From positions 258,579 through 322,578 of the forward strand of contig JAXHNJ010000001.1 of NCBI GenBank assembly GCA_034520665.1: a DNA stretch of 64,000 nt. Reading direction: 5' to 3'. The translations under genes and the position numbers were made by a program. The notes under the pieces are model-generated. The model was not told the DNA's origin, did not search any database, and saw only the letters and a program-made list of their open reading frames with translations. This document shows, piece after piece, positions 2,050 through 56,400 of the stretch. How positions within the stretch are numbered: the stretch's first letter is position 1; each line of letters begins with the position of its first letter. This stretch comes from Patescibacteria group bacterium. Lineage in GTDB: Bacteria > Patescibacteriota > Patescibacteriia > JAXHNJ01.

Positions 2050-2598
2050 TTGGAACGTTGCACTAAATTTCAGCCCTTCGGGGAATATAACAAGGATTTA
2101 GAAGTTTCGTTCGGTTTCACCTCACTACAACCAAATTTTGCTTCCTCTATTGGTAAAAATAAGGAAGTCGGCAAAACTTCTCATACACGCGAACGTTGGC
2201 TGACATTCATTTTTATCAATATGCAAACACGTGAAGAAACAAAATCTTTTCTCGAAAAAAAATATCCAGAAATTATGAATTCTACTGGTAAAAATTGGGA
2301 TGTAAAAGATGATAAACTAAAAGAGCGGGTATTAGAAAGGTTGACTGATTATTTTCACCCGATAATTGTCAAAAACTTAAAGTCCATTGAAAATACTTTA
2401 GGAAGAGTGAATCAGCGTCGCGAGAATTTTACATTCTTATTTATAGGCGCACTTTTAGGTGTCGTAGGTGGCTTAGTTGCAAATATATTGCATGATTTAC
2501 TAATAAGATTTTCACTAAAATATTATATTATTATCGCTTCAATTATTTTTTTAGCGGTACTTTTGTCTAGTCTTTTATATATTAACTATAAAAAATAA
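2050..2598 (+). CDS. hypothetical membrane protein (182 aa)
   Basis: Two C-terminal hydrophobic helices; no catalytic motif seen. Confidence 0.35.
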   Translation: MERCTKFQPFGEYNKDLEVSFGFTSLQPNFASSIGKNKEVGKTSHTRERWLTFIFINMQTREETKSFLEKKYPEIMNSTGKNWDVKDDKLKERVLERLTDYFHPIIVKNLKSIENTLGRVNQRRENFTFLFIGALLGVVGGLVANILHDLLIRFSLKYYIIIASIIFLAVLLSSLLYINYKK

Positions 2599-5134: not shown

Positions 5135-5608
5135 ATGAAGTTTAGAAAATTTAAGAAGAGTGATATTAGACAGATTGCAAAAATTAAGAATTCTGTTTTT
5201 AGTAGTTTCAATAAATCAGAATATTTTGAAAAAGGAACCGTTTCAAAATATTTAAATTACACCAATTCAAAAAAGTCAGACAAAGAACTCCTTGAAGCAT
5301 TTAAGATAACTAAGGATTCTATTTTTTATGTTGCTGAAGAAAATGATAAAATTTTCGGATATATCAAAGGAAGAAAAAATAGAATCGGGAATTTGTTTGT
5401 TCTTGGTCAAAACCATAAAAAAGGGATTGGTAGAAAATTAGTTAATTTATTTGAAAAAGAAGCAGAAAAACAGAACTCTAAAGAAATTAAGATTCACTCT
5501 TCAATTTATGCAGTTCCTTTCTATCAAAAAAGGGGTTATAAGAAAACTACTGGAATTAGAAATCTTCATGGCTTGAAGATTCAACCAATGAAAAAAGTCC
5601 TAAACTAG
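5135..5608 (+). CDS. GNAT family N-acetyltransferase (paralog 1 of 2)
   Basis: HKKGIGRKLV motif A. 98% identical to the ORF at 8494..8967. Confidence 0.65.
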   Translation: MKFRKFKKSDIRQIAKIKNSVFSSFNKSEYFEKGTVSKYLNYTNSKKSDKELLEAFKITKDSIFYVAEENDKIFGYIKGRKNRIGNLFVLGQNHKKGIGRKLVNLFEKEAEKQNSKEIKIHSSIYAVPFYQKRGYKKTTGIRNLHGLKIQPMKKVLN

Positions 5609-5993
5609 ACTTCTTCGAAATTTTTTCAGAATTCCTCGACCCCGCTGCGCTCTCGCCTATGGCTCGGGGTAATTAACAGGATTTTAACGGAAAAATACTC
5701 GGCTCGCATTTTCCCAAATCGCCTACGGCAAAACTTCTCTAAATCCTGAAGTTGTGCAAGACCCCATTTCTTGCCAAGAGGATTTTCAGGATTTTTTGAG
5801 AAAAGGGGAGTAGGGGAAGAGGTTTTTTATTGGTAAAAAAAATGGTAAACTATAGACAGTATCGGATTATATAATGGTTTAATAAAACTTCGTATAATAA
5901 CGAGTTAAGTGAAATTGAGAATTTGTCCTATGAGATTTAAATGGGCACGATTTTTTCCGAAAACTTTATATCACTACATACTTTTATTAATTT

Positions 5994-8493: not shown

Positions 8494-8967
8494 ATGAAGT
8501 TTAGAAAATTTAAGAAGAGTGATATTAGACAGATTGCAAAAATTAAGAATTCTGTTTTTAGTAGTTTCAATAAATCAGAATATTTTGAAAAAGGAACCGT
8601 TTCAAAATATTTAAATTACACCAATCCAAAAAAGTCAGACAAAGAACTCCTTGAAGCATTTAAGATAACTAAGGATTCTATTTTTTATGTTGCTGAAGAA
8701 AATGATAAAATTTTCGGATATATCAAAGGAAGAAAAAATAGAATCGGGAATTTGTTTGTTCTTGGTCAAAACCATAAAAAAGGGATTGGTAGAAAATTAG
8801 TTGATTTATTTGAAAAAGAAGCAGAAAAACAGAACTCTAAAGAAATTAAGATTAACTCTTCAATTTATGCAGTTCCTTTCTATCAAAAAAGGGGTTATAA
8901 GAAAACTACTGGAATTAGAAATCTTCATGGCTTGAAGATTCAACCAATGAAAAAAGTCCTAAACTAA
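8494..8967 (+). CDS. GNAT family N-acetyltransferase (paralog 2 of 2)
   Basis: Differs from 5135..5608 by three substitutions (S45P, N104D, H130N). Confidence 0.65.
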   Translation: MKFRKFKKSDIRQIAKIKNSVFSSFNKSEYFEKGTVSKYLNYTNPKKSDKELLEAFKITKDSIFYVAEENDKIFGYIKGRKNRIGNLFVLGQNHKKGIGRKLVDLFEKEAEKQNSKEIKINSSIYAVPFYQKRGYKKTTGIRNLHGLKIQPMKKVLN

Positions 8968-9007
8968 ACTTCTTCGAAATTTTTTCAGAATTCCTCGACC
9001 CCGCTGC

Positions 9008-9084
9008 CTGCCCGCCATAGTCTACGGCATCAGGCCTTGGCTCGCCCGCCTGAGTTGCTCAGGCAAGTCGGGCGGCAGGCGGGC
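9008..9084. repeat. 77-bp GC-rich palindromic insertion (REP/MITE-like) present in only one copy of the duplicated repeat
   Basis: CTGCCCGCC...GCCTGAGTTGCTCAGGC...GGCAGGCGGGC has terminal and internal inverted repeats. The paralogous position 5647/5648 is uninterrupted. Confidence 0.6.
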
Positions 9085-9412
9085 GCTCTCGCCTATGGCT
9101 CGGGGTAATTAACAGGATTTTAACGGAAAAATACTCGGCTCGCATTTTCCCAAATCGCCTACGGCAAAACTTCTCTAAATCCTGAAGTTGTGCCAAACCC
9201 CATTTTTTGCCAAGAGGATTTTCAGGATTTTTTGAAACAAGGGAAGTAGGAGAAGAGGTTTTTTTATTGGTAAAAAAAATGGTAAACTATAGACAGTGTT
9301 GGATTAATATAATGGTTTAATAAAAATTCGCATAATAAACAAATTTGAGGTGATTATACGAAATCAATTCGTATAATAACGAGTTATCGGAAATAAAAAT
9401 AGTAAAATTTTT

Positions 9413-29681: not shown

Positions 29682-29906
29682 ATGACTATTGATTTTAACG
29701 ACGATATTGTCGATCAAGACGGTTACATGAAACATTTTAGCTATAGTGAGCGTATGAAAAAACTTTATCCGATTATGAAAGAGGCTAAGCAAAAACACAA
29801 AAAAATGAAGGAAACTTTTAAGATTAACGGACGAACTATTCAGTTTATTGTGGATAAGGATGGCACTGGTGTGCTGCGCAAAAAACCAATGACGGGCTGG
29901 TTTTAG
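29682..29906 (+). CDS. hypothetical small protein
   Basis: ORF only. Confidence 0.25.
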   Translation: MTIDFNDDIVDQDGYMKHFSYSERMKKLYPIMKEAKQKHKKMKETFKINGRTIQFIVDKDGTGVLRKKPMTGWF

Positions 29907-30184
29907 GAGAATCTTAAAAGCCGTAATAGCCGTAGAGCCATAAAAGCCTTAAAACCTTATTGAATAGGGGATAGCCTCTTATTTTTAGGCTGTTTTTATT
30001 ATTTTTTTTGCCACTTGTTTAACTTTATTCATAATAAACTTATTTACAAGCCGAAGCTCCGAGCAAAGTGAGGAGCGAAGACTTGACGTTCGCCCGTTCG
30101 ACCAGGCTCAGGACGATTTAAATATTAGACATTTGTATTTATTTAATTAATTTGGCTGTAAAATAGGTATTTTTTTAATATCTA

Positions 30185-30213
30185 TTGACGTTCGCTTTTT
30201 GTTCGTGTATAAT
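30185..30213 (+). promoter_or_regulatory. lexA promoter (TTGACG, 17 nt, TATAAT) with an overlapping GTTC-N7-GTTC direct repeat, a candidate LexA operator
   Basis: ttGACGTTCgctttttGTTCgtgTATAAT lies 37 bp upstream of the lexA ATG. The direct-repeat box type is established for alphaproteobacterial LexA, so applying it here is inference. Confidence 0.35.
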
Positions 30214-30249
30214 GAATATGGTTGTGGATAATTATTAATTTTTAAATCT

Positions 30250-30861
30250 ATGGCGGAATTAACCAAAAAACAGCAAGATATACTAAATTACGTAGTCAAT
30301 TATATTCAAGACCATGAATACAGTCCTTCTTTTCAGGAAATTGGCCAGAATTTTGGCCTGTCTTCCAAAGCCACGGTTTCAGCCCATGTTCACGCCTTGA
30401 TAAAAAAAGGTTATTTAAGAAAGGTCAAGGGCTTAGCTCGGTCTTTAAACCTGACTAAAAAAGTTTATCAGCAGGGCCAGGCCGTGCAGCTGCCGCTTTT
30501 GGGCTTGATCGCCGCGGGTGAGCCAATTGAAGCTATTGAAGATAATGAAATGGTTTCTGTACCGGCCGGGGTGGTGCAGGACGCCAACTCTTATGTTTTA
30601 AAAGTAAAAGGGCAGTCCATGATTGAAGAAGGTATACTGGATGGTGATTATGTGGTAGTGGAAAGGAATTTTTATCCGCAAAACGGAGACGTGGTAGTGG
30701 CTTTGCTGGATAATGAATATGCCACCTTGAAAAAATATTTTCGTGAGAAAAACCGCATTCGCCTGCAGCCGGCTAATAAAACCATGAAACCAATTTTTGC
30801 CAAGAATCCGGCTATCCAGGGCATTGTCCGGGGCATTTACCGGGTCTTTTCTCATGCGTAA
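30250..30861 (+). CDS. lexA: LexA repressor (S24 peptidase)
   Basis: N-terminal winged helix-turn-helix. Cleavage-site region AAGEPIEA. Catalytic Ser within GQSM, and Lys further downstream. Confidence 0.85.
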   Translation: MAELTKKQQDILNYVVNYIQDHEYSPSFQEIGQNFGLSSKATVSAHVHALIKKGYLRKVKGLARSLNLTKKVYQQGQAVQLPLLGLIAAGEPIEAIEDNEMVSVPAGVVQDANSYVLKVKGQSMIEEGILDGDYVVVERNFYPQNGDVVVALLDNEYATLKKYFREKNRIRLQPANKTMKPIFAKNPAIQGIVRGIYRVFSHA

Positions 30862-30919
30862 AGGAAATATAAAGGAAACAGGAAGTGGCAAGACTGAAAA
30901 GTATTATTAATAATCTTTC

Positions 30920-31851
30920 ATGAAAAAATATAATCTTAAGAACCAAGTTCATTTCATCACTATTAATACATATAAAAAATACTGGCTTTTTAAGAAAGAA
31001 AATCTTTGCCAAATAGTAATTGATAATCTAAATTTTTACCGCCGTAAATTTAGTTTTAAATTATTGGGTTACGTAATTATGCCTAATCATCTACATTTAT
31101 TAATCCAATTAAATAAAAAATATAATGATATTTCAAAGGTAATGAGGGATTTTAAGAAATTTACAAGTGTTCAAATTATAAAGCAGTTAATAAAAGAAAA
31201 TGAAAAAGATTTACTTAAGAAATTTTCTATGACTGGAAAAATTTTTAATTATCCCTCTACTCTGGGTACTGCCCGATCCTCAGATCGGGCCGGCTTTCCA
31301 GCTGAAGGCCGAATCTGAGGATTCGGCCTACCCGACTAGTTTTAGAAAGAAGAGAAAATATTCAGTCTGGATGAATGATTTTTACGACTTTAACATCTAT
31401 TCCGAGAATCTTCTACTCTGGGTACTGCCCGATCCTCAGATCGGGCCGGCTTTCCAGCCGAATCTGAGGATTCGGCTTACCCGACTAGTTTTAGAAGGAA
31501 GAGAAAATATTCAGTCTGGATGAATGATTTTTACGATTTTAATATCTATTCCGAGAATTTTCTACTCTGGGTACTGCCCGATCCTCAGATCGGGCTAGTC
31601 TCTCGGCCGAATCTGAGGATTCGGACTACCCGACTAGTTTTAGAAAGAAAAGAAAATATTCAGTCTGGATGAATAATTTTTACGACTTTAATATCTATTC
31701 CGAGAATAAACTAGAGCAAAAACTTAATTATATTCATAATAATCCAGTCAAAGCCAAGATAGTTAAAAAACCTGAGGATTATAAATGGTCTTCTTACAGA
31801 AATTATTATTTGGATGATGATTCAATAATAGAAATTAATCAGTTATTTTAA
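30920..31851 (+). pseudogene. Disrupted IS200/IS605-type (REP-associated) tyrosine transposase gene, interrupted by three tandem 149-156-bp repeats that each carry a GC-rich double hairpin
   Basis: N-terminal part 30920..31318 has the HuH motif (MPNHLHLLIQ). C-terminal part 31669..31851 has the catalytic Tyr region (VWMNDFYDFNIY...YIHNNPVKAKIV...DYKWSSY). The 149-bp repeat is not a multiple of 3, so the frame is broken. Confidence 0.6.
31254..31707 (+). repeat. Three tandem copies (156, 149, 149 bp) of a unit made of a GC-rich palindromic element plus about 75 bp of transposase coding sequence
   Basis: Each unit has the hairpins GCCCGATCCTCAGATCGGGC and CCGAATCTGAGGATTCGG. A fourth partial copy sits at 31928-32143. 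Confidence 0.8.
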
Positions 31852-32160
31852 ATAATTTAAATTCTTAAAATATGGTATTACTAAATATTATTTCTGGGTA
31901 GGCGAAAGCCCTCGCTTTTGCCATACTTTGATGCTTAAAACATTTTCTATGACTGGCAAAATTTTTAATTATCTCTCTACTCTGGGTACTGCCCGATCCT
32001 CAGATTGGGCCGGCTTTCCAGCCGAATCTGAGGATTCGGCCTACCCGACTAGTTTTAGAAAGAAAAGAAAATATTCAGTCTGGATGAATGATTTTTACGA
32101 TTTTAATATCTATTCCGAGCATAAATTTAATAATAGAAATTAATAGACTATAAAAAAAAC

Positions 32161-32409
32161 ATGCACGAAAAAATTAACGAGCCAATAAAAGTTCTAGCTT
32201 CTTTTTTAAAAGGGCAGGTTAGTCCGCTTTCTTTTGTTTGGCAGGGCCGGCGCTATAATCCGACTAAAATTAATTTGGTTCATTCAGAGAGAAAAGGTAA
32301 AGGAAAAATTTATTATTTTTCGGTTTCCGATAATTCTAATTTTTACCGGCTGGCTTTTAATAATGAAAATCTTAACTGGCGCTTGATGGAAATATATTCG
32401 CAAAATTAA
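32161..32409 (+). CDS. hypothetical protein (82 aa)
   Basis: ORF only. Confidence 0.3.
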   Translation: MHEKINEPIKVLASFLKGQVSPLSFVWQGRRYNPTKINLVHSERKGKGKIYYFSVSDNSNFYRLAFNNENLNWRLMEIYSQN

Positions 32410-32420
32410 ATTTTTTAGAT

Positions 32421-32610
32421 AAAAAAAGACCCGGACAACAAACAGGTCTCATAATAATGAAAAGATTTGTCGTCCGGGTTCCCCACATCAAGAAAGAGAA
32501 AATATGAGGGGCAAATTTCCCGTGCCCAGCAGTTTATAGCTCGGCGAACGCCGGCTAAACACGGACGAAAATTCGCCCCCTAGCTCTCTTTCAATAAAAA
32601 TTATTTTAAA
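32421..32610 (-). ncRNA. candidate structured small RNA (about 180 nt) on the minus strand, with its own terminator
   Basis: Minus-strand Rho-independent terminator: 13-bp stem CCCGGACGACAAA/TTTGTTGTCCGGG followed by TCTTTTTTT. Upstream segment has nested long-range pairing (GAGGGGCAAATTTCC with GAAAATTCGCCCCC, and CCGTG with CACGG). A rc-TTGACA sits at about 32645. No ORF. Confidence 0.3.
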
Positions 32611-32880
32611 AAGGGCAAAGTAATTTTATACAAAATAATAATTTTGTCAAGTATTTTTTGGCTACCAAGCTTATTTTTGGCTAATATTAGTTTATTAATA
32701 TCTAAATTCTAAACAAATTTTAAATTACAATATTTTAAACTATAAATTATTTTGATTTTTCGAGAATAGAACCAAATACTTTCATAAGTTTTGTAGATTC
32801 GTTGATTAGTATATTTTTTTTCTCCCACTTGTTGATTTATAGGATTAGTTAACCTTTTTATTATCAACAAAAAGATATCT

Positions 32881-33183
32881 CAAAAATTATCTTACACATT
32901 GATATGAATAGCTATTTTGCTTCTTGTGAACAGCCCCGCACCACTTCTCTTCGGCGCTCAGAGTTGGATGCGGGACGAAGTTTAATTAATTTTATATTTT
33001 TATGACTTCGATTATCTTACATATTGACATGAACAGCTATTTTGCTTCCTGTGAGCAGCCCCGCACCAATTCCTCGTTTTACTCGGAACGATGCGGGACG
33101 AAGTTTAATTAATTTTATATTTTCATGACTTCGATTATCTTACACATTGATATGAACAGCTATTTTGCTTCTTGTGAACAGCA
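32881..33183 (+). repeat. Three tandem 122-bp repeats. Each holds the first ~55 nt of the dinB coding sequence plus an upstream GC-rich hairpin; the third copy is the functional gene start
   Basis: ATGACTTCGATTATCTTACA(C/T)ATTGA(T/C)ATGAACAGCTATTTTGCTTC recurs at 32886, 33003 and 33125. Hairpins CCCGCACC...GATGCGGG lie between copies. 122 is not a multiple of 3; the decoy ATG at 33003 opens a 38-codon frame. Confidence 0.8.
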
Positions 33184-34330
33184 AGCTAATCCTTTTTTAC
33201 GGGGTAGACCGGTCGGAGTTTGCGCTTATTTGTCAGAGCAGGGTTGTATTATTGCTTCGTCCATTGAAGCTAAAAAAAAAGGAGTGAAAACTGGCTGTCG
33301 CGTCAAGGAAGCCAAGCAGCTTTGTCCAGATATTTTTTTAATGGAAAACGAGCCGGCTAAATACCGCAGTATTACTAAAAAAATTTTCTCTATTCTAGCC
33401 GAATATACCGATAAACTAGAGCCTTACAGTATTGACGAGGCTTTTTTAGATCTCACTGGTTGGTCTAAAAACTTTAAACAAGCTAAAGAAAAAGCTAAAG
33501 AAATTAAAGATCGAATAAAGAACGAAGTCGGGGACTGGCTCAAAGCCTCGGTCGGTCTTTCTTACACCCGCTGGCTGGCCAAATTTGCTTCAGACCAGGC
33601 CGATAAAGATAGTATTTTAATAATAAAGAAAGATAATTTAGATAAATTTTTAAAAAGACCCTTAACCAGTGCTTGGGGTATTAATTACCGACTGGAGAGT
33701 AGACTAAAATCTTTGGGTATTTTTAATTTGCTCGATTTAAAAAAATATCCAGTAGCTAATCTAATGCAAGTTCTGGGTCGGCCTGGCTATTATCTCTGGG
33801 CTAATGTTAACGGTCTACCGACAGAAAAAGTAAAAAAACAAAAAGAGCCTAAATCAGTCGGTCATAGCTATTGTTTATACCAAAAATCAAAGGATATCGA
33901 TTATTTATCTTCAGTTTTGCTCAAGCTTTGCGAAAAAACCGGCCGCCGCCTGCGGCTTTTGGAAAAAGAGGCTCACTCAATCAGCTTTGGCTTAAGATTT
34001 AAAAACGGCGGCGGCCTTCATCAGGTAAAGAGAATTAAAAATGGTCTTTTTACCACCAAAAGTATTTTTCGAACTGCTTTAAAGATTATGTCAAAAATTC
34101 ATCTTTATGAAGAAGTTTCTTTTCTAGCCATATCAGTTTCGCACCTGTGGTCAATCAGCCGGCAAATGTCTCTTTTTAAAGATAATCTTAAAGAAAAAGA
34201 GATAAGCTTGGCTATGGACAAAATTAATGATCAATACGGCCAGTACTTGGTTTACTGGGGGAGTATGCACGGCACTGATAAAGTGGCCCGCGACCGCATT
34301 GGCTTTCGTAAAACTGTTAATACAAATTAA
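33125..34330 (+). CDS. dinB: DNA polymerase IV (Y-family, translesion synthesis)
   Basis: N-terminal ILHIDMNSYFASCEQ. Catalytic DE (SIDEAFLDLT). Length and organisation match DinB. Confidence 0.9.
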   Translation: MTSIILHIDMNSYFASCEQQANPFLRGRPVGVCAYLSEQGCIIASSIEAKKKGVKTGCRVKEAKQLCPDIFLMENEPAKYRSITKKIFSILAEYTDKLEPYSIDEAFLDLTGWSKNFKQAKEKAKEIKDRIKNEVGDWLKASVGLSYTRWLAKFASDQADKDSILIIKKDNLDKFLKRPLTSAWGINYRLESRLKSLGIFNLLDLKKYPVANLMQVLGRPGYYLWANVNGLPTEKVKKQKEPKSVGHSYCLYQKSKDIDYLSSVLLKLCEKTGRRLRLLEKEAHSISFGLRFKNGGGLHQVKRIKNGLFTTKSIFRTALKIMSKIHLYEEVSFLAISVSHLWSISRQMSLFKDNLKEKEISLAMDKINDQYGQYLVYWGSMHGTDKVARDRIGFRKTVNTN

Positions 34331-55302: not shown

Positions 55303-56400
55303 ATTATAAAACGCGGAGATAAATTTTTTACTTACGCAAAAATAAACATCTCTATCCGCGTAGCTGGAGATTTATCTCCAGATTCATCTTTTAAAGCCTA
55401 TTAATTTTTCTTTTAGTCTCATCATTCCGATAATAATTACGATAACCTGAATATTTATAATCTTTGGGGTTTTTAAAGCTTTTATAAAAGACTCTATTAT
55501 TTTATCCGCGAGAAGAACTGGTCCCCAGACCGGTTCTGACAATATATTTAATAAGCTCAGACTTCTTGGTAAATTAGAGATTTAATAATCTATTTTGCTC
55601 GAGAAGGTTGGATCTCCTGATCCAACCGAATAAGGTGACGCGGATCAGAAGATCCGCGCTTCTCGGGTAATTTTAAGGGCTTCCTTGGCAGTTTGTTTTA
55701 TACTAGGTAGTTTCCAATGGCTTTTTTATTCCAAACCCACCACCAAAACCTTACTAGCTGCTATAACCATAACCAATTAGCAAAAAAGAGGGTTTTGGGC
55801 CGAGCCGCTAGTTTGGTTATTAGGCTGAGTCAATGGTTTTTTATTCCAAACCCACAACCAAAACCTTACTAGCTGCTATAACCATAACTAATTAGCAAAA
55901 CATAAATCGCCGGATAAATCCGGCGCCAGGCTATTAAATAATATAAAATATAATTTGGTGCAACATTCATATGGCGATATTTTAAAAAAGGTTTTTTCGC
56001 GAGAAGAACTGGTCCCCAGACCGGTTCTGGCAATATATTTACTAAGCTCAGACTTCTCGGTAAATTAGAGATTTAATAATCTATTTTTCTCGAGAAGGTT
56101 GGATCTCCTGATCCAACCGAATAAGGTGACGCGGATCAGGAGATCCGCGCTTCTCGGGTAATTTTAAGGGCTTCCTTGCCAGCTTGTTTTATACTAGGTA
56201 GATGCGGTGCGGGCCATGACCCGCCTCTAGGCCTGGTTCATTAATATTAAAAATAAATTTAAACAAAAGCATAATATTTGAATATTTAATATATAGCGGA
56301 AATAAAGATTCCCGCCTAGGCGATTTTATTTAAACGCGAAAATAAATCTTTTGCCTACGCCAAAACAAACATCTTTACCACGTCGGTGGAGATTTATCTC
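55303..56400. repeat. about 1.1-kb non-coding nested direct-repeat region: R1 – A(207 bp) – B(70 bp) – B' – A' – R1'
   Basis: A 55504-55710 and A' 55996-56201 are more than 95% identical with multiple hairpins. B 55727-55795 and B' 55833-55905 are CA-rich. R1 55303-55392 and R1' 56330-56400 contain the GGAGATTTATCTCC palindrome. Confidence 0.8.

Follow-up and report, generated by a model that had tools for sequence, protein, structure and literature searches.

A RAYT pseudogene with tandem copies of its in-frame REP dimer between lexA and dinB in a Patescibacteria genome

In a 64-kb stretch of a Patescibacteria genome (the window, meaning the whole stretch of DNA analyzed), the gene located between lexA and dinB is, by its profile scores and closest fold, a RAYT (REP-associated tyrosine transposase), an HUH/Y1 enzyme. 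The copy in the window is a pseudogene, its frame destroyed by a 7-bp insertion and by 149-bp units that each combine a palindromic REP dimer (H) with a piece of transposase coding sequence (B). H is an inherited, translated, in-frame part of this RAYT clade rather than a fresh disruptive insertion, and the amplification of the array is itself ordinary decay. The locus is probably a degenerating REPtron (RAYT plus REP hairpins) in which the REP dimer and its coding flank were amplified passively and without regulatory purpose. The features of the locus are the following, with coordinates in the window:

30250..30861, + strand: lexA, left neighbor (Pfam LexA_DNA_bind, Peptidase_S24)
30920..31252, + strand: RAYT segment A, codons 1-111 (Pfam Y1_Tnp; HUH motif inside)
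31257..31339, core 31264-31333, + strand: H1 REP dimer, with a 7-bp insertion (CTGAAGG) in its spacer
31340..31409, + strand: B1, coding segment (F)RKKRKYSVWMNDFYDFNIYSEN, in a frame that is no longer that of segment A
31413..31488, core 31420-31482, + strand: H2 REP dimer, spacer variant a (CCGGCTTTCCAG)
31489..31558, + strand: B2, second copy of the coding segment (RRKRKY..), from the repeat search and four-way alignment
31562..31637, core 31569-31631, + strand: H3 REP dimer, spacer variant b (CTAGTCTCTCGG), the orthologue type
31638..31851, + strand: B3 and segment C, the RAYT 3' portion; catalytic Tyr codon inside, stop at 31849-31851
31896..31922, + strand: solo GTAG-type REP of another sequence class, GGGTAG-GCGAAAGC-CCTC-GCTTTTGC-C, 45 nt past the RAYT stop
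31934..32144, H4 core 31984-32046, + strand: copy 4, a gene fragment: A' (39 nt), H4, B4 and the gene 3' end (~20 nt)
32161..32409, + strand: conserved 82-aa ORF, right neighbor of the RAYT locus, syntenic in locus L130
32886..33182, + strand: second tandem array, at the dinB 5' end, 2.4 units of T+E
55394..56201, - strand: second RAYT-derived locus, more decayed, P0045-like

The RAYT gene and its broken frame

We reconstructed the protein from segments A, H, B and C and scored it against NCBIfam profiles. It reached 117.6 bits on the RAYT model NF047646 (cutoff 80), on which the orthologue P0003 scored 117.2 bits, and 31.7 bits on the IS200 model NF033573, under the cutoff of 55. The only PDB sequence match for the RAYT was 4ER8, and the AlphaFold model of P0003 (pLDDT 85) had 4er8_A as its best Foldseek match (E 9.6e-9). 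A reading made from the sequence alone had described an HUH tyrosine-transposase gene, which these scores support, the enzyme being of the RAYT kind. RAYTs carry two specific motifs, a conserved N-terminal Thr and NP(L/V)(R/K)xG beside the catalytic Tyr (Nunvar et al. 2010, PMC2817692). The Thr corresponds to T14, invariant in our alignment; for the second motif the window gene has NPVKAK (K for G), the family consensus being NPVRAG.

The HUH motif (HLH, residues 57-59, at 31088-31096) lies upstream of the array and the catalytic Tyr codon (31729-31731, ..LNYIHNNPV) downstream of it; both columns are invariant or nearly so in the alignments, and in the window the two motifs fall on separate ORFs. 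The actual ORF of segment A comprises 132 aa, stops at 31318, scores 71.8 bits on NF047646 and is identical to P0004 (MDZ7798274.1), while B3 and segment C are readable only as a 60-aa ORF from 31669 (44.2 bits, profile positions 107-146). Since both ORFs score below the cutoff of 80, we classified the window copy as a RAYT pseudogene. The gene carries three lesions. Two are extra H+B units, which break the frame because their length of 149 bp is not divisible by 3; the third is the 7-bp insertion within H1, which shifts the frame into a TGA at 31316-31318. An alternative genetic code with TGA as a sense codon was rejected, as that frame then runs into a TAG and the orthologues are read without recoding.

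The REP dimer H and its inheritance

The H core is 63 nt long (about 75 nt, or 25 codons, with its inverted flanks) and forms a head-to-head dimer of GTAG-type REP hairpins, each with a GGGTA(G/C) head, an 8-bp stem and a 4-nt loop, the heads facing outward. The right unit, on the bottom strand, reads GGGTAG-GCCGAATC-CTCA-GATTCGGC in every copy and orthologue; the left unit reads GGGTAC-TG-CCCGATC-CTCA-GATCGGG, its fourth head base (C) deviating from GTAG. The GGGTAG start is also found in the solo REP at 31896, which shares 96.7% identity over 30 nt with the left REP of the in-frame dimer of locus L131, and in the REPs of L004, L006 and L131. GTAG-type REPs have been described as hairpins that carry GTAG, or a degenerate form of it, at the terminus, with stems of 6-13 bp and short loops, and that belong to a family with head-to-head dimers, G-T pairs and complementary stem changes whose members are repeated, dispersed in the genome and mostly intergenic (Di Nocera et al. 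2013, PMC3733652).

H folds strongly (RNA MFE of -36 to -44 kcal/mol, z of -4.7 to -6.5 against shuffles). Its REP/REPIN architecture upholds the earlier description of a GC-rich element of REP type. The MFE fold is a single long hairpin, yet several of its pairs are broken in 3-4 of 10 sequences, whereas the local hairpins are intact across sequences: pairing amounts to 98.6% for the two hairpins plus outer stem and 92.1% for the long hairpin, with pair 9-26 of the two-hairpin structure forming a compensatory series of CG (4), UG (2) and UA (4). A covariance model trained on H matched two untrained elements in the second RAYT remnant, where a 210-nt segment is duplicated at 491-bp spacing and where double hairpins at 55601-55664 and 56092-56155 have the three-helix architecture of H. 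Compared with H, this second family keeps 21 of 21 pairs standard, 8 of which are changed on both sides and none broken.

Run over the whole 64-kb window with filters off, the covariance model found no H-like element outside the two RAYT-derived loci, whereas classical REP/RAYT systems are defined by a dispersed REP population. The left half of H (26 nt) occurs 4 times in the window (0.00 expected) and the right half (20 nt) 4 times on the + strand, with one additional weak cross-match. Beyond the window, a metagenome scan for H matched only L129, scans of viral contigs for H and for the solo REP gave no match, and a 16-mer scan of genome contigs returned chance matches in GC-rich genomes apart from the L004 genome. 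Units of the GGGTA(G/C) hairpin form are confined to RAYT loci in the window and in 11 related loci. In the window, L004, L005, L008 and L129, no REP precedes the start codon; the dimer is inside the reading frame and the stop is closely followed by another REP or dimer, which departs from the canonical flanking arrangement.

Intact orthologues at five loci (208-231 aa) translate H in frame as about 25 residues without stops. P0001, P0002 and P0003 (62-65% identical, 209-231 aa) are open through H, as is the 208-aa ORF of L129, and at this loop the more distant homologue of L131 (46% identical) has another GTAG REP dimer, likewise in frame. The idea that a recent hairpin insertion interrupts the gene is therefore not supported, as P0001, P0002, P0003 and L129 translate H and the breakage in the window comes from the 7-bp insertion and the two 149-bp units. 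An intron, a bypassed segment or an untranslated insert was likewise rejected on the in-frame, stop-free H of the five intact homologues. In the P0003 model, pLDDT is <50 for the residues that H encodes and >90 for the flanking strands, and 4ER8 has only ~6 residues at this position; H is accordingly predicted to encode a disordered loop that separates the HUH half from the strand and helix bearing the catalytic Tyr. The intact paralogue that the sequence-only reading had proposed to look for was found as P0045, on the same contig, 43% identical and with a different hairpin sequence.

Relatives and paralogues also show rearrangement endpoints at H in several independent alleles. L008 has lost B and C in a deletion that abuts the right end of H. 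Two tandem H copies are present in L004, and L129 has a second, identical H three nt past the stop codon. P0241 consists of A, H, B and a partial H fused to an NAD(P)H-hydrate dehydratase and occurs twice in the same MAG, under two accessions on a 698,002-bp contig that appears, by adjacent accession numbers, to belong to that MAG. The genome thus holds at least 3 RAYT copies, P0004 (the window) and P0241 twice, with a common N-terminal sequence. In L004 and L005, the RAYT sits in a conserved operon-like context (101-aa ORF, RAYT, Carb_kinase). The identical pair of copies in L129 is the one observation pointing to H as a sequence that may replicate as a REPIN unit.

The array, its neighborhood and its origin

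Tandem Repeats Finder reported the array at 31256..31707 (period 149, 3.0 copies, 92% matches, score 745), one of 3 tandem repeats scoring ≥80 in the 64 kb, 2 of which are in this locus. A repeat search of the window retrieved 4 in-register copies at 31263, 31412, 31561 and 31976. Together with a four-way alignment, these searches recover what had been read from the sequence, that is three tandem units of 156, 149 and 149 bp, each made of H followed by 70-74 bp of B, and a fourth partial copy. The first unit is longer because CTGAAGG is inserted in its H spacer (+7 bp). The excess over a native gene amounts to two H+B units plus 7 bp, one H and one B being native. In the four-way alignment, copy 4 adds 39 nt of the upstream coding segment (..KTFSMTGKIFNY) and ~20 nt of the gene 3' end, with a reading frame open through H4; it is what an internal deletion of ~110 bp has left of an older ~415-bp duplication. 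We rejected a DGR-like template/variable pair for copy 4, as the differences are not adenine-specific and copy 4 is a truncated gene fragment; the immediate neighbors of the RAYT locus are lexA, the 82-aa ORF and dinB. An integron attC or CRISPR-like array, considered on the anatomy only, was set aside, since all the "cassettes" are the same stretch of the host gene.

The units are distinguishable from one another by the 7-bp indel, by SNPs and by the spacer, which is shared by units 1, 2 and copy 4 and differs at 7/12 positions in unit 3, the stems being identical. H3 is 92-94% identical to H of L008 and L129, the other units 79-85%. That every unit ends with the same coding segment was only partly correct: B is repeated, but the encoded peptides differ (RRK in unit 2, MNNFYD in unit 3, SEH in copy 4), with the non-synonymous changes K to R, D to N and N to H. 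The B|H junctions come in two distinct sequences, GAGAAT|CTTCTAC and GAGAAT|TTTCTAC.

The number of units is that of a single assembly, and fewer units, or a single H-B unit, would be present if reads of strain variants or of paralogous RAYTs had been threaded into the array. At least 3 near-identical RAYT copies exist in the MAG, the B|H junction of P0241 could supply such k-mers, the differences between units are concentrated in the spacer, as could be true of strain variants, and the short-read Logan contigs of SRR26473340 break around the locus, none spanning the array. We nevertheless regard an assembly artefact as highly unlikely. Each unit has its own diagnostic differences and there are two distinct B|H junctions; the 3 independent Logan contigs match the window at 100% identity, and two (L003 and L002) begin or end inside the repeated segments, as real repeats predict; and H is duplicated independently in relatives (two tandem copies in L004, two copies in L129). 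The 455,760-bp contig, in a genome of ~1.15 Mb (two contigs, assumed to be one MAG), also suggests reads that span 1-kb repeats.

Under the passive account that we favor for the array, an older ~415 bp duplication would have left the fourth copy, internally deleted. An illegitimate tandem duplication of H+B, joined at 2 nt of microhomology (..AT|C..) and favored by a replication fork that stalls or slips on the strong palindrome, would have been followed by unequal sister-strand recombination between the 149-bp repeats and by exchange with paralogous copies. The same passive process may lie behind REP/BIME clusters reiterated with flanking DNA in other bacteria, and the number of tandem BIMEs differs among E. 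coli strains (PMC3333891). We infer that the amplification arose passively. It fits the earlier suggestion of a REP element inserted in its own transposase gene and then amplified as far as local amplification goes; the recent insertion does not stand, H being native in the orthologues. Several observations speak against this account, among them the lack of H-like elements outside RAYT-derived loci in the 64 kb, a unit count taken from one assembly, and the dinB array described below. The array is a mosaic, and a simple recent triplication does not yield the unit-3 spacer; one has to suppose a series of separate events or an exchange with other copies. The genome also holds at least 3 RAYT copies, unlike typical RAYTs, which are found in one copy per genome (Bertels et al. 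2017).

Amplification and deletion could instead have been catalyzed by a RAYT acting on its own internal REP dimer, with units added or removed as in the Ton-Hoang model for BIMEs. The transposase would recognize the GTAG hairpin in single-stranded DNA, make a cut close to it and move strands from one sister or tandem copy to another. E. coli TnpAREP cuts ssDNA in vitro at CT up to >400 nt from a functional GTAG-bearing BIME, and its strand transfer is able to build tandem BIME copies (PMC3333891). Breakpoints fall in or beside H in four independent alleles, the duplications of the second RAYT remnant are bounded by the same kind of double hairpin, P0045 provides an intact RAYT on the same contig, and a mosaic of spacer variants is compatible with an exchange of strands among differing copies. 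Against this, the B|H junctions are not at a C|T step joining parental sequences, and no C|T cleavage signature like that of E. coli TnpAREP was found at the array junctions. Recombination between direct H copies, of the kind present in L129, accounts for the flush deletion of L008 just as well, P0045 is the only intact paralogue and its divergent sequence is tied to a different hairpin, and the hairpin of the dinB array lacks a GTAG head. We consider catalysis by the RAYT possible but rather unlikely.

dinB itself lies at 33125..34330, and the position of the locus between lexA and dinB, noticed from the sequence, was confirmed for both genes by Pfam. In L130, lexA is directly followed by the 82-aa ORF, without a RAYT; this ORF had no Pfam or NCBIfam match. 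In the dinB array, T is 48 nt long (codons 4-19) and E is a 45-47-nt hairpin followed by a 30-nt AT-rich tail with a new ATG. The dinB array resembles the RAYT array in form, not in sequence. Its hairpin reads CGT-CCCGCA.. on the bottom strand and has a G+C-rich stem (6+2 bp), a variable 22-24-nt interior and a folding no better than that of shuffles (z of -1.1 and -1.25). As CGTC-type REPs were defined by a CGTC tag, an 8-9-bp stem starting with A-T pairs and a 4-5-nt loop, we rejected this assignment on the stem, the interior and the fold. An array of flank plus an unrelated hairpin only 1 kb away may point to a process that acts on the whole locus or is driven by an enzyme, which is not a specific prediction of passive slippage.

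A functional array, whether through programmed frameshift or bypass yielding a full-length RAYT, through phase variation in the number of units, or as a structured RNA or attenuator regulating the SOS-linked gene, is in our judgment extremely improbable. The RAYT follows lexA in three genomes (here, L008 and L129) with no terminator-like site between them, and the hairpins are very stable, with G-U intermediates tolerated on the sense strand. However, three separate frame breaks would require recoding, the orthologues translate one H in frame, the alleles of relatives are truncated in unrelated ways, and the B copies gather the non-synonymous changes given above. There was also no Rfam match in the window at gathering thresholds or in 29900-33300 at E up to 1, on which a known structured RNA or ribozyme was rejected. 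Because the gene has no continuous frame, its pieces score below the cutoff and related alleles are truncated differently at H, the locus reflects decay and not design, and the self-regulatory arrangement once suggested for it is not borne out.

A broader reading, which we hold to be unlikely, is that this Patescibacteria RAYT clade keeps its cognate REP dimer deliberately in frame and that arrays, flush deletions and fusions are footprints of self-targeting. The sequence classes of H, L131 and P0045 would then differ because the REP dimer co-evolves with the protein at one permissive loop. Gene and substrate would form a compact co-inherited unit behind lexA, probably expressed when single-stranded DNA is abundant, and the system would be self-limiting, since the enzyme acts on its own gene.

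Significance and comparison with known systems

To our knowledge, the small genomes of Patescibacteria (CPR) are not known for REP-type repeats; the locus extends REP/RAYT systems to this group, for which they appear to be new. The conservation of a REP dimer within a RAYT reading frame also appears to be new: in the RAYT/REP literature consulted we did not find a RAYT carrying its own in-frame REP dimer at a conserved loop in several sequence classes, the arrangement displayed here. The allele series (intact, amplified, deleted flush with H, fused to a neighbor) offers material for studying how RAYTs process REPs in vivo. The locus further explains the fragmented "transposase" ORFs and the chimeric 442-aa "NAD(P)H-hydrate dehydratase" annotated in the MAG, and is flagged as a site of assembly breaks or possible misjoins.

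The locus is most readily compared with REPtrons (RAYT/TnpAREP, for example E. coli YafM, PDB 4ER8). It shares with them the HUH motif, the Tyr and the N-terminal Thr, a reconstructed protein that passes the NF047646 RAYT equivalog with 4ER8 as the closest fold, the GTAG-type head with an 8-bp stem, short loop and head-to-head dimer, a REP just 3' of the gene, and hairpins that vary together with the protein between paralogues. It differs in that the 5'-side REP dimer is inside the ORF and translated instead of upstream of the gene, in the absence of dispersed REPs in the 64 kb, in its multi-copy gene, in its Patescibacteria host and in NPVKAK replacing NP(L/V)(R/K)xG. IS200/IS605 elements have in common with it the Y1 HUH fold, the recognition of hairpins by the enzyme and several gene copies in the genome; here, however, the IS200 model falls short (31.7 vs 55), tnpB is absent, no left- and right-end hairpins bracket the whole gene, and L004 and L005 have an operon-like context.

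REPINs (Bertels and Rainey 2011, PMC3116915) likewise combine two inverted REPs, a short spacer and an association with RAYTs, and H can, like them, fold as one long hairpin (MFE ~-41 kcal/mol), but its variation favors two local hairpins plus an outer stem and H is known from RAYT loci. Intragenic REPs (PMC3733652) and Rickettsia palindromic elements resemble H as in-ORF palindromic dimers that keep the frame and encode 20-30 residues in a surface loop. Many of their known hosts are DNA repair or replication genes, and here a hairpin array is found in dinB; the host gene of H is, in contrast, the RAYT itself, and the position is conserved across homologues with different REPs (H, L131 and P0045 types), which is unreported for other decorated genes.

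Both in-frame intragenic REPs and REP dimers tandemly reiterated with flanking DNA have already been described (PMC3733652; PMC3333891). The array shares with such tandem BIME/REP clusters the head-to-tail arrangement of REP dimer plus flanking DNA, a spacer more variable than the stems and a copy number that is expected to vary. It differs in having only three units and in its co-amplified flank, which consists of 70-74 nt of transposase coding sequence, so that amplification inactivates the gene.

A RAYT gene in the lexA-dinB interval

When the coding segments A, B and C of the interrupted gene were joined, the product matched Pfam Y1_Tnp, and the reconstructed protein scored 117.6 bits on the NCBIfam equivalog "REP-associated tyrosine transposase" (RAYT; cutoff 80) against only 31.7 on the IS200 model (cutoff 55). 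Its sole PDB sequence match was 4ER8 (E. coli TnpAREP bound to a REP hairpin), and the AlphaFold model of the orthologue P0003 (mean pLDDT 85) gave 4er8_A as best Foldseek match. The HuH tyrosine transposase named by the sequence-only reading is thereby upheld, as is its location between lexA and dinB, both confirmed by Pfam. P0004 (MDZ7798274.1), a protein annotated in a "Patescibacteria group bacterium" MAG on a contig of 455,760 bp, has the same sequence as the ORF at 30920..31318. In its catalytic motifs, its profile score and its fold the gene agrees with RAYTs; at the motif NP(L/V)(R/K)xG it has NPVKAK, flanking by two inverted REPs is not seen in its canonical form, and the gene is not single copy in its genome.

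L130, a relative whose DinB is 72% identical, carries lexA, an 82-aa ORF, dinB and SSB and no RAYT, so that the RAYT locus is a lineage-specific occupant of the interval. No terminator-like site was found between lexA and the window RAYT, and their co-transcription would be plausible. Upstream of lexA, 30170..30231 (+) is 89% identical to L130, with flanking genes at only ~72%, and the region's best promoter-like site (TTGACG-17-TATAAT) lies there; a direct repeat GTTCG-N6-GTTCG between its hexamers could be an atypical LexA operator, and GTTCGCCCGTTCG at 30096-30108, inside a G+C-rich segment (30050-30116), resembles it. From the 82-aa ORF to dinB, 32440..32590 (+) comprises ~150 nt of non-coding, locally high-G+C sequence with paired segments (e.g. 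GACCCGGACAAC../..GTCGTCCGGGTT), and it matched no Rfam family at E values as high as 1. Almost every ORF of at least 90 aa in the window is on the + strand, and cumulative GC skew increases over 29-35 kb.

Within the gene, Tandem Repeats Finder reported 3.0 copies of period 149 at 31256..31707 (92% matches, score 745); two of the three tandem repeats scoring 80 or more in the whole window fall within the 2.3-kb stretch that holds this array. A repeat search of the window retrieved four in-register copies (at 31263, 31412, 31561 and 31976), and both halves of the GC-rich element occur four times each on the + strand (0.00 expected from shuffles) and, one weak cross-match of the right half aside, nowhere else in the 64 kb. 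A four-way alignment gave the order A-H1-B1-H2-B2-H3-B3-C, and these three analyses agree with the earlier description of three tandem hairpin-plus-coding units and a fourth displaced copy. The parts are as follows:

30920-31252, + strand: segment A, holding the HUH motif
~75 nt: H, a palindromic element
70-74 nt: segment B, encoding (F)RKKRKYSVWMNDFYDFNIYSEN
31708-31851, + strand: segment C (..LNYIHNNPV.. with the catalytic Tyr)
31934-32144: copy 4, made of A (39 nt), then H, then B, then ~20 nt of the gene's 3' end

Unit 1 is longer by 7 bp because CTGAAGG is inserted in its spacer. The spacer CCGGCTTTCCAG is common to units 1, 2 and copy 4, and unit 3 has CTAGTCTCTCGG, a type also found in orthologues and in P0241, a RAYT-related protein. 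The array is thus a mosaic, and copy 4 implies an earlier duplication of ~415 bp and a later deletion of ~110 bp. That the array was created during assembly is very unlikely, since its units carry their own distinguishing differences and Logan contigs are 100% identical to the window, two of them (L003 and L002, from run SRR26473340) beginning or ending inside repeated segments.

The hairpin H as a REP dimer and as a translated segment

Each half of H combines a GGGTA head with a stem of 8 bp and a loop of 4 nt, and the heads point outward (top strand, GGGTAC-TG-CCCGATC-CTCA-GATCGGG; right half on the bottom strand, GGGTAG-GCCGAATC-CTCA-GATTCGGC). GTAG-type REPs paired head to head have this architecture (Di Nocera et al., PMC3733652), as does a REPIN. 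In a scan of the window and eleven related loci, GGGTA(G/C) + hairpin units were confined to RAYT loci, including REPs directly 3' of the L004 and L006 genes; a solitary REP (GGGTAGGCGAAAGCCCTCGCTTTTGCC, 31896-31922, +) lies 45 nt past the window gene. H folds at -36 to -44 kcal/mol (z -4.7 to -6.5). For ten H sequences, drawn from six genomes, a model of two hairpins with an outer stem gave 98.6% pairing and a CG/UG/UA series at one pair, and a single long hairpin gave 92.1% pairing and breaks exactly at the variable positions. Since variation falls in the loops and spacer and not in the stems, what is conserved is the structure of the nucleic acid.

Over the window, with filters off, a covariance model of H recovered all four H copies and two untrained matches on the minus strand, 55601-55664 (34.3 bits) and 56092-56155 (31.2 bits). 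In these, every one of the 21 pairs is a standard one, and 8 differ from H on both sides, which is good evidence for the three-helix structure. No Rfam family matches H, and none, tRNA included, reached its gathering score in the 64 kb. The untrained elements sit in a second, more decayed locus:

55394..56201, - strand: RAYT-derived, P0045-like, with only ~36 C-terminal codons left

Here a 210-nt segment is duplicated (491-bp spacing, 96% identical), with a further 64-nt pair between the copies. Each 210-nt copy holds a double hairpin of the same three-helix architecture as H (outer stem GAGAA/TTCTC) and a second palindrome, which is translated as ..PRPELSKYIARTGLGTGSSPS.. in P0045, the intact paralogue on the window's contig. 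Elsewhere in the window, one and the same G+C-rich hairpin, distinct in place from these (5626..5681; 8986..9118, +), follows two paralogous 157-aa ORFs (5135..5608 and 8494..8967), and in the latter hairpin a further G+C-rich palindrome of ~77 nt is nested in the loop (MFE -68 kcal/mol for a 181-nt stretch). In this A+T-rich genome, G+C-rich hairpins seem to attract the insertion of further hairpins.

The peptide encoded by H (..STLGTVRSSDR..LPAESKDSAYP..) is in frame in the closest full-length homologues, P0001 (231 aa), P0002 (220 aa) and P0003 (209 aa), which are 62-65% identical, and their DNA has the same palindrome. Scanning for H retrieved the metagenome contig L129, where lexA precedes an intact RAYT of 208 aa that holds one H in frame, and a second, identical H lies 3 nt past the stop codon. 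L004 has two tandem H copies without duplicated coding sequence. The RAYT of L131 shares only 46% identity with the window gene and has, in frame in the same loop, a GTAG REP dimer of another sequence; the left REP of that dimer (2285..2314), from a different sample, is 96.7% identical over 30 nt to the solitary REP at 31896, one REP sequence class being extragenic in the window lineage and intragenic in that of L131. P0045 has a different palindrome-encoded insertion again, ~10 residues upstream of the H position. The H-encoded residues of the P0003 model have pLDDT <50 between elements >90, and 4ER8 has only ~6 residues there, which places H in a permissive surface loop. H is a native, translated part of this RAYT clade, and the suggestion that a REP-type element had inserted into its own transposase gene is not supported as it stands, the segment being in frame in P0001, P0002, P0003 and L129.

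Decay, amplification and rearrangement

With CTGAAGG in H1 the frame moves and runs into TGA at 31316-31318, and every extra 149-bp unit displaces it once more; of the B copies only B3 still continues into C, which can be read as a 60-aa ORF. Bit scores of the pieces, 71.8 and 44.2, are both under the family cutoff, and the B copies carry amino-acid replacements (K to R, D to N, N to H). The window copy is a pseudogene, and the self-regulatory arrangement considered earlier, like any functional or recoding role, finds no support and is very unlikely.

In-frame intragenic REP dimers encode 20-30 residues, often in repair genes (PMC3733652), REP dimers repeated in tandem along with flanking DNA are likewise on record (PMC3733652), and tandem BIME number varies between strains (PMC3333891). 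The window array is an instance of this known tandem REP/BIME amplification; here the flank amplified together with the hairpin belongs to the coding sequence of the transposase itself. We consider that it probably formed passively. An illegitimate duplication, at a 2-nt microhomology (..AT|C..) and close to a palindrome that stalls replication, would have come first, with unequal recombination and exchange with paralogous copies thereafter. TnpAREP cleaves at CT and transfers strands in vitro, and a model for tandem amplification has been proposed (PMC3333891); action of the RAYT on its own REP dimer would agree with the clustering of breakpoints at H and with the mosaic spacers, but a C|T junction signature was looked for and not found, and we hold this route to be rather unlikely. 

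A second array, formally similar, lies at the dinB 5' end and bears on the mechanism of the first:

32886..33182, + strand: period 123-125, 2.4 units, each of T (48 nt, dinB codons 4-19) + E (a 45-47-nt G+C-rich hairpin, then a 30-nt AT-rich tail supplying a new ATG ACT TCG)

By comparison with L130, the first T keeps the ancestral upstream region, with ATC as start codon where L130 has ATG, and all five differences among the three T copies are synonymous. The E hairpin interior differs strongly between units, with tail conserved and stems identical. E is neither a GTAG nor a CGTC REP, and no further copy was found in the window or in the related loci compared.

Several alleles, the window array among them, have rearrangements that end at H. 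In L008, lexA is followed by A-H and directly by a gene for Carb_kinase (NAD(P)H-hydrate dehydratase), the deletion of B and C being flush with the right end of H; this allele would be the expected recombination product of two direct H copies arranged as in L129. P0241 (442 aa; two accessions of identical sequence, MDZ7799049.1 and MDZ7799070.1, from a contig of 698,002 bp, apparently part of the same MAG as the window) consists of A-H-B and a partial, out-of-frame H fused to the dehydratase, and is a chimera despite its annotation as NAD(P)H-hydrate dehydratase. Its two copies bring this RAYT to at least three in the genome, if the contig is so assigned, and mean that the B|H junction is not confined to the window. 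In L004 and L005 the same RAYT has a 101-aa ORF on one side and Carb_kinase on the other, and from the adjacency in these loci and L008, RAYT copies mark rearrangement points in these genomes.

Comparison with known systems

A full-text literature search found no paper naming RAYT or REPIN together with Patescibacteria, nor, in the RAYT/REP literature searched, any mention of REP dimers within the reading frame of a RAYT; Di Nocera et al. (PMC3733652) noted only REPs overlapping RAYT gene ends. Amplification and pseudogene state by themselves are ordinary decay. REP families form dispersed populations, whereas the H matches in the 64-kb window lie in two RAYT-derived loci. The locus works like a REPtron (RAYT + GTAG REPs), resembles an RPE in the in-frame palindrome of its RAYT, and resembles BIMEs in the tandem amplification of its array.
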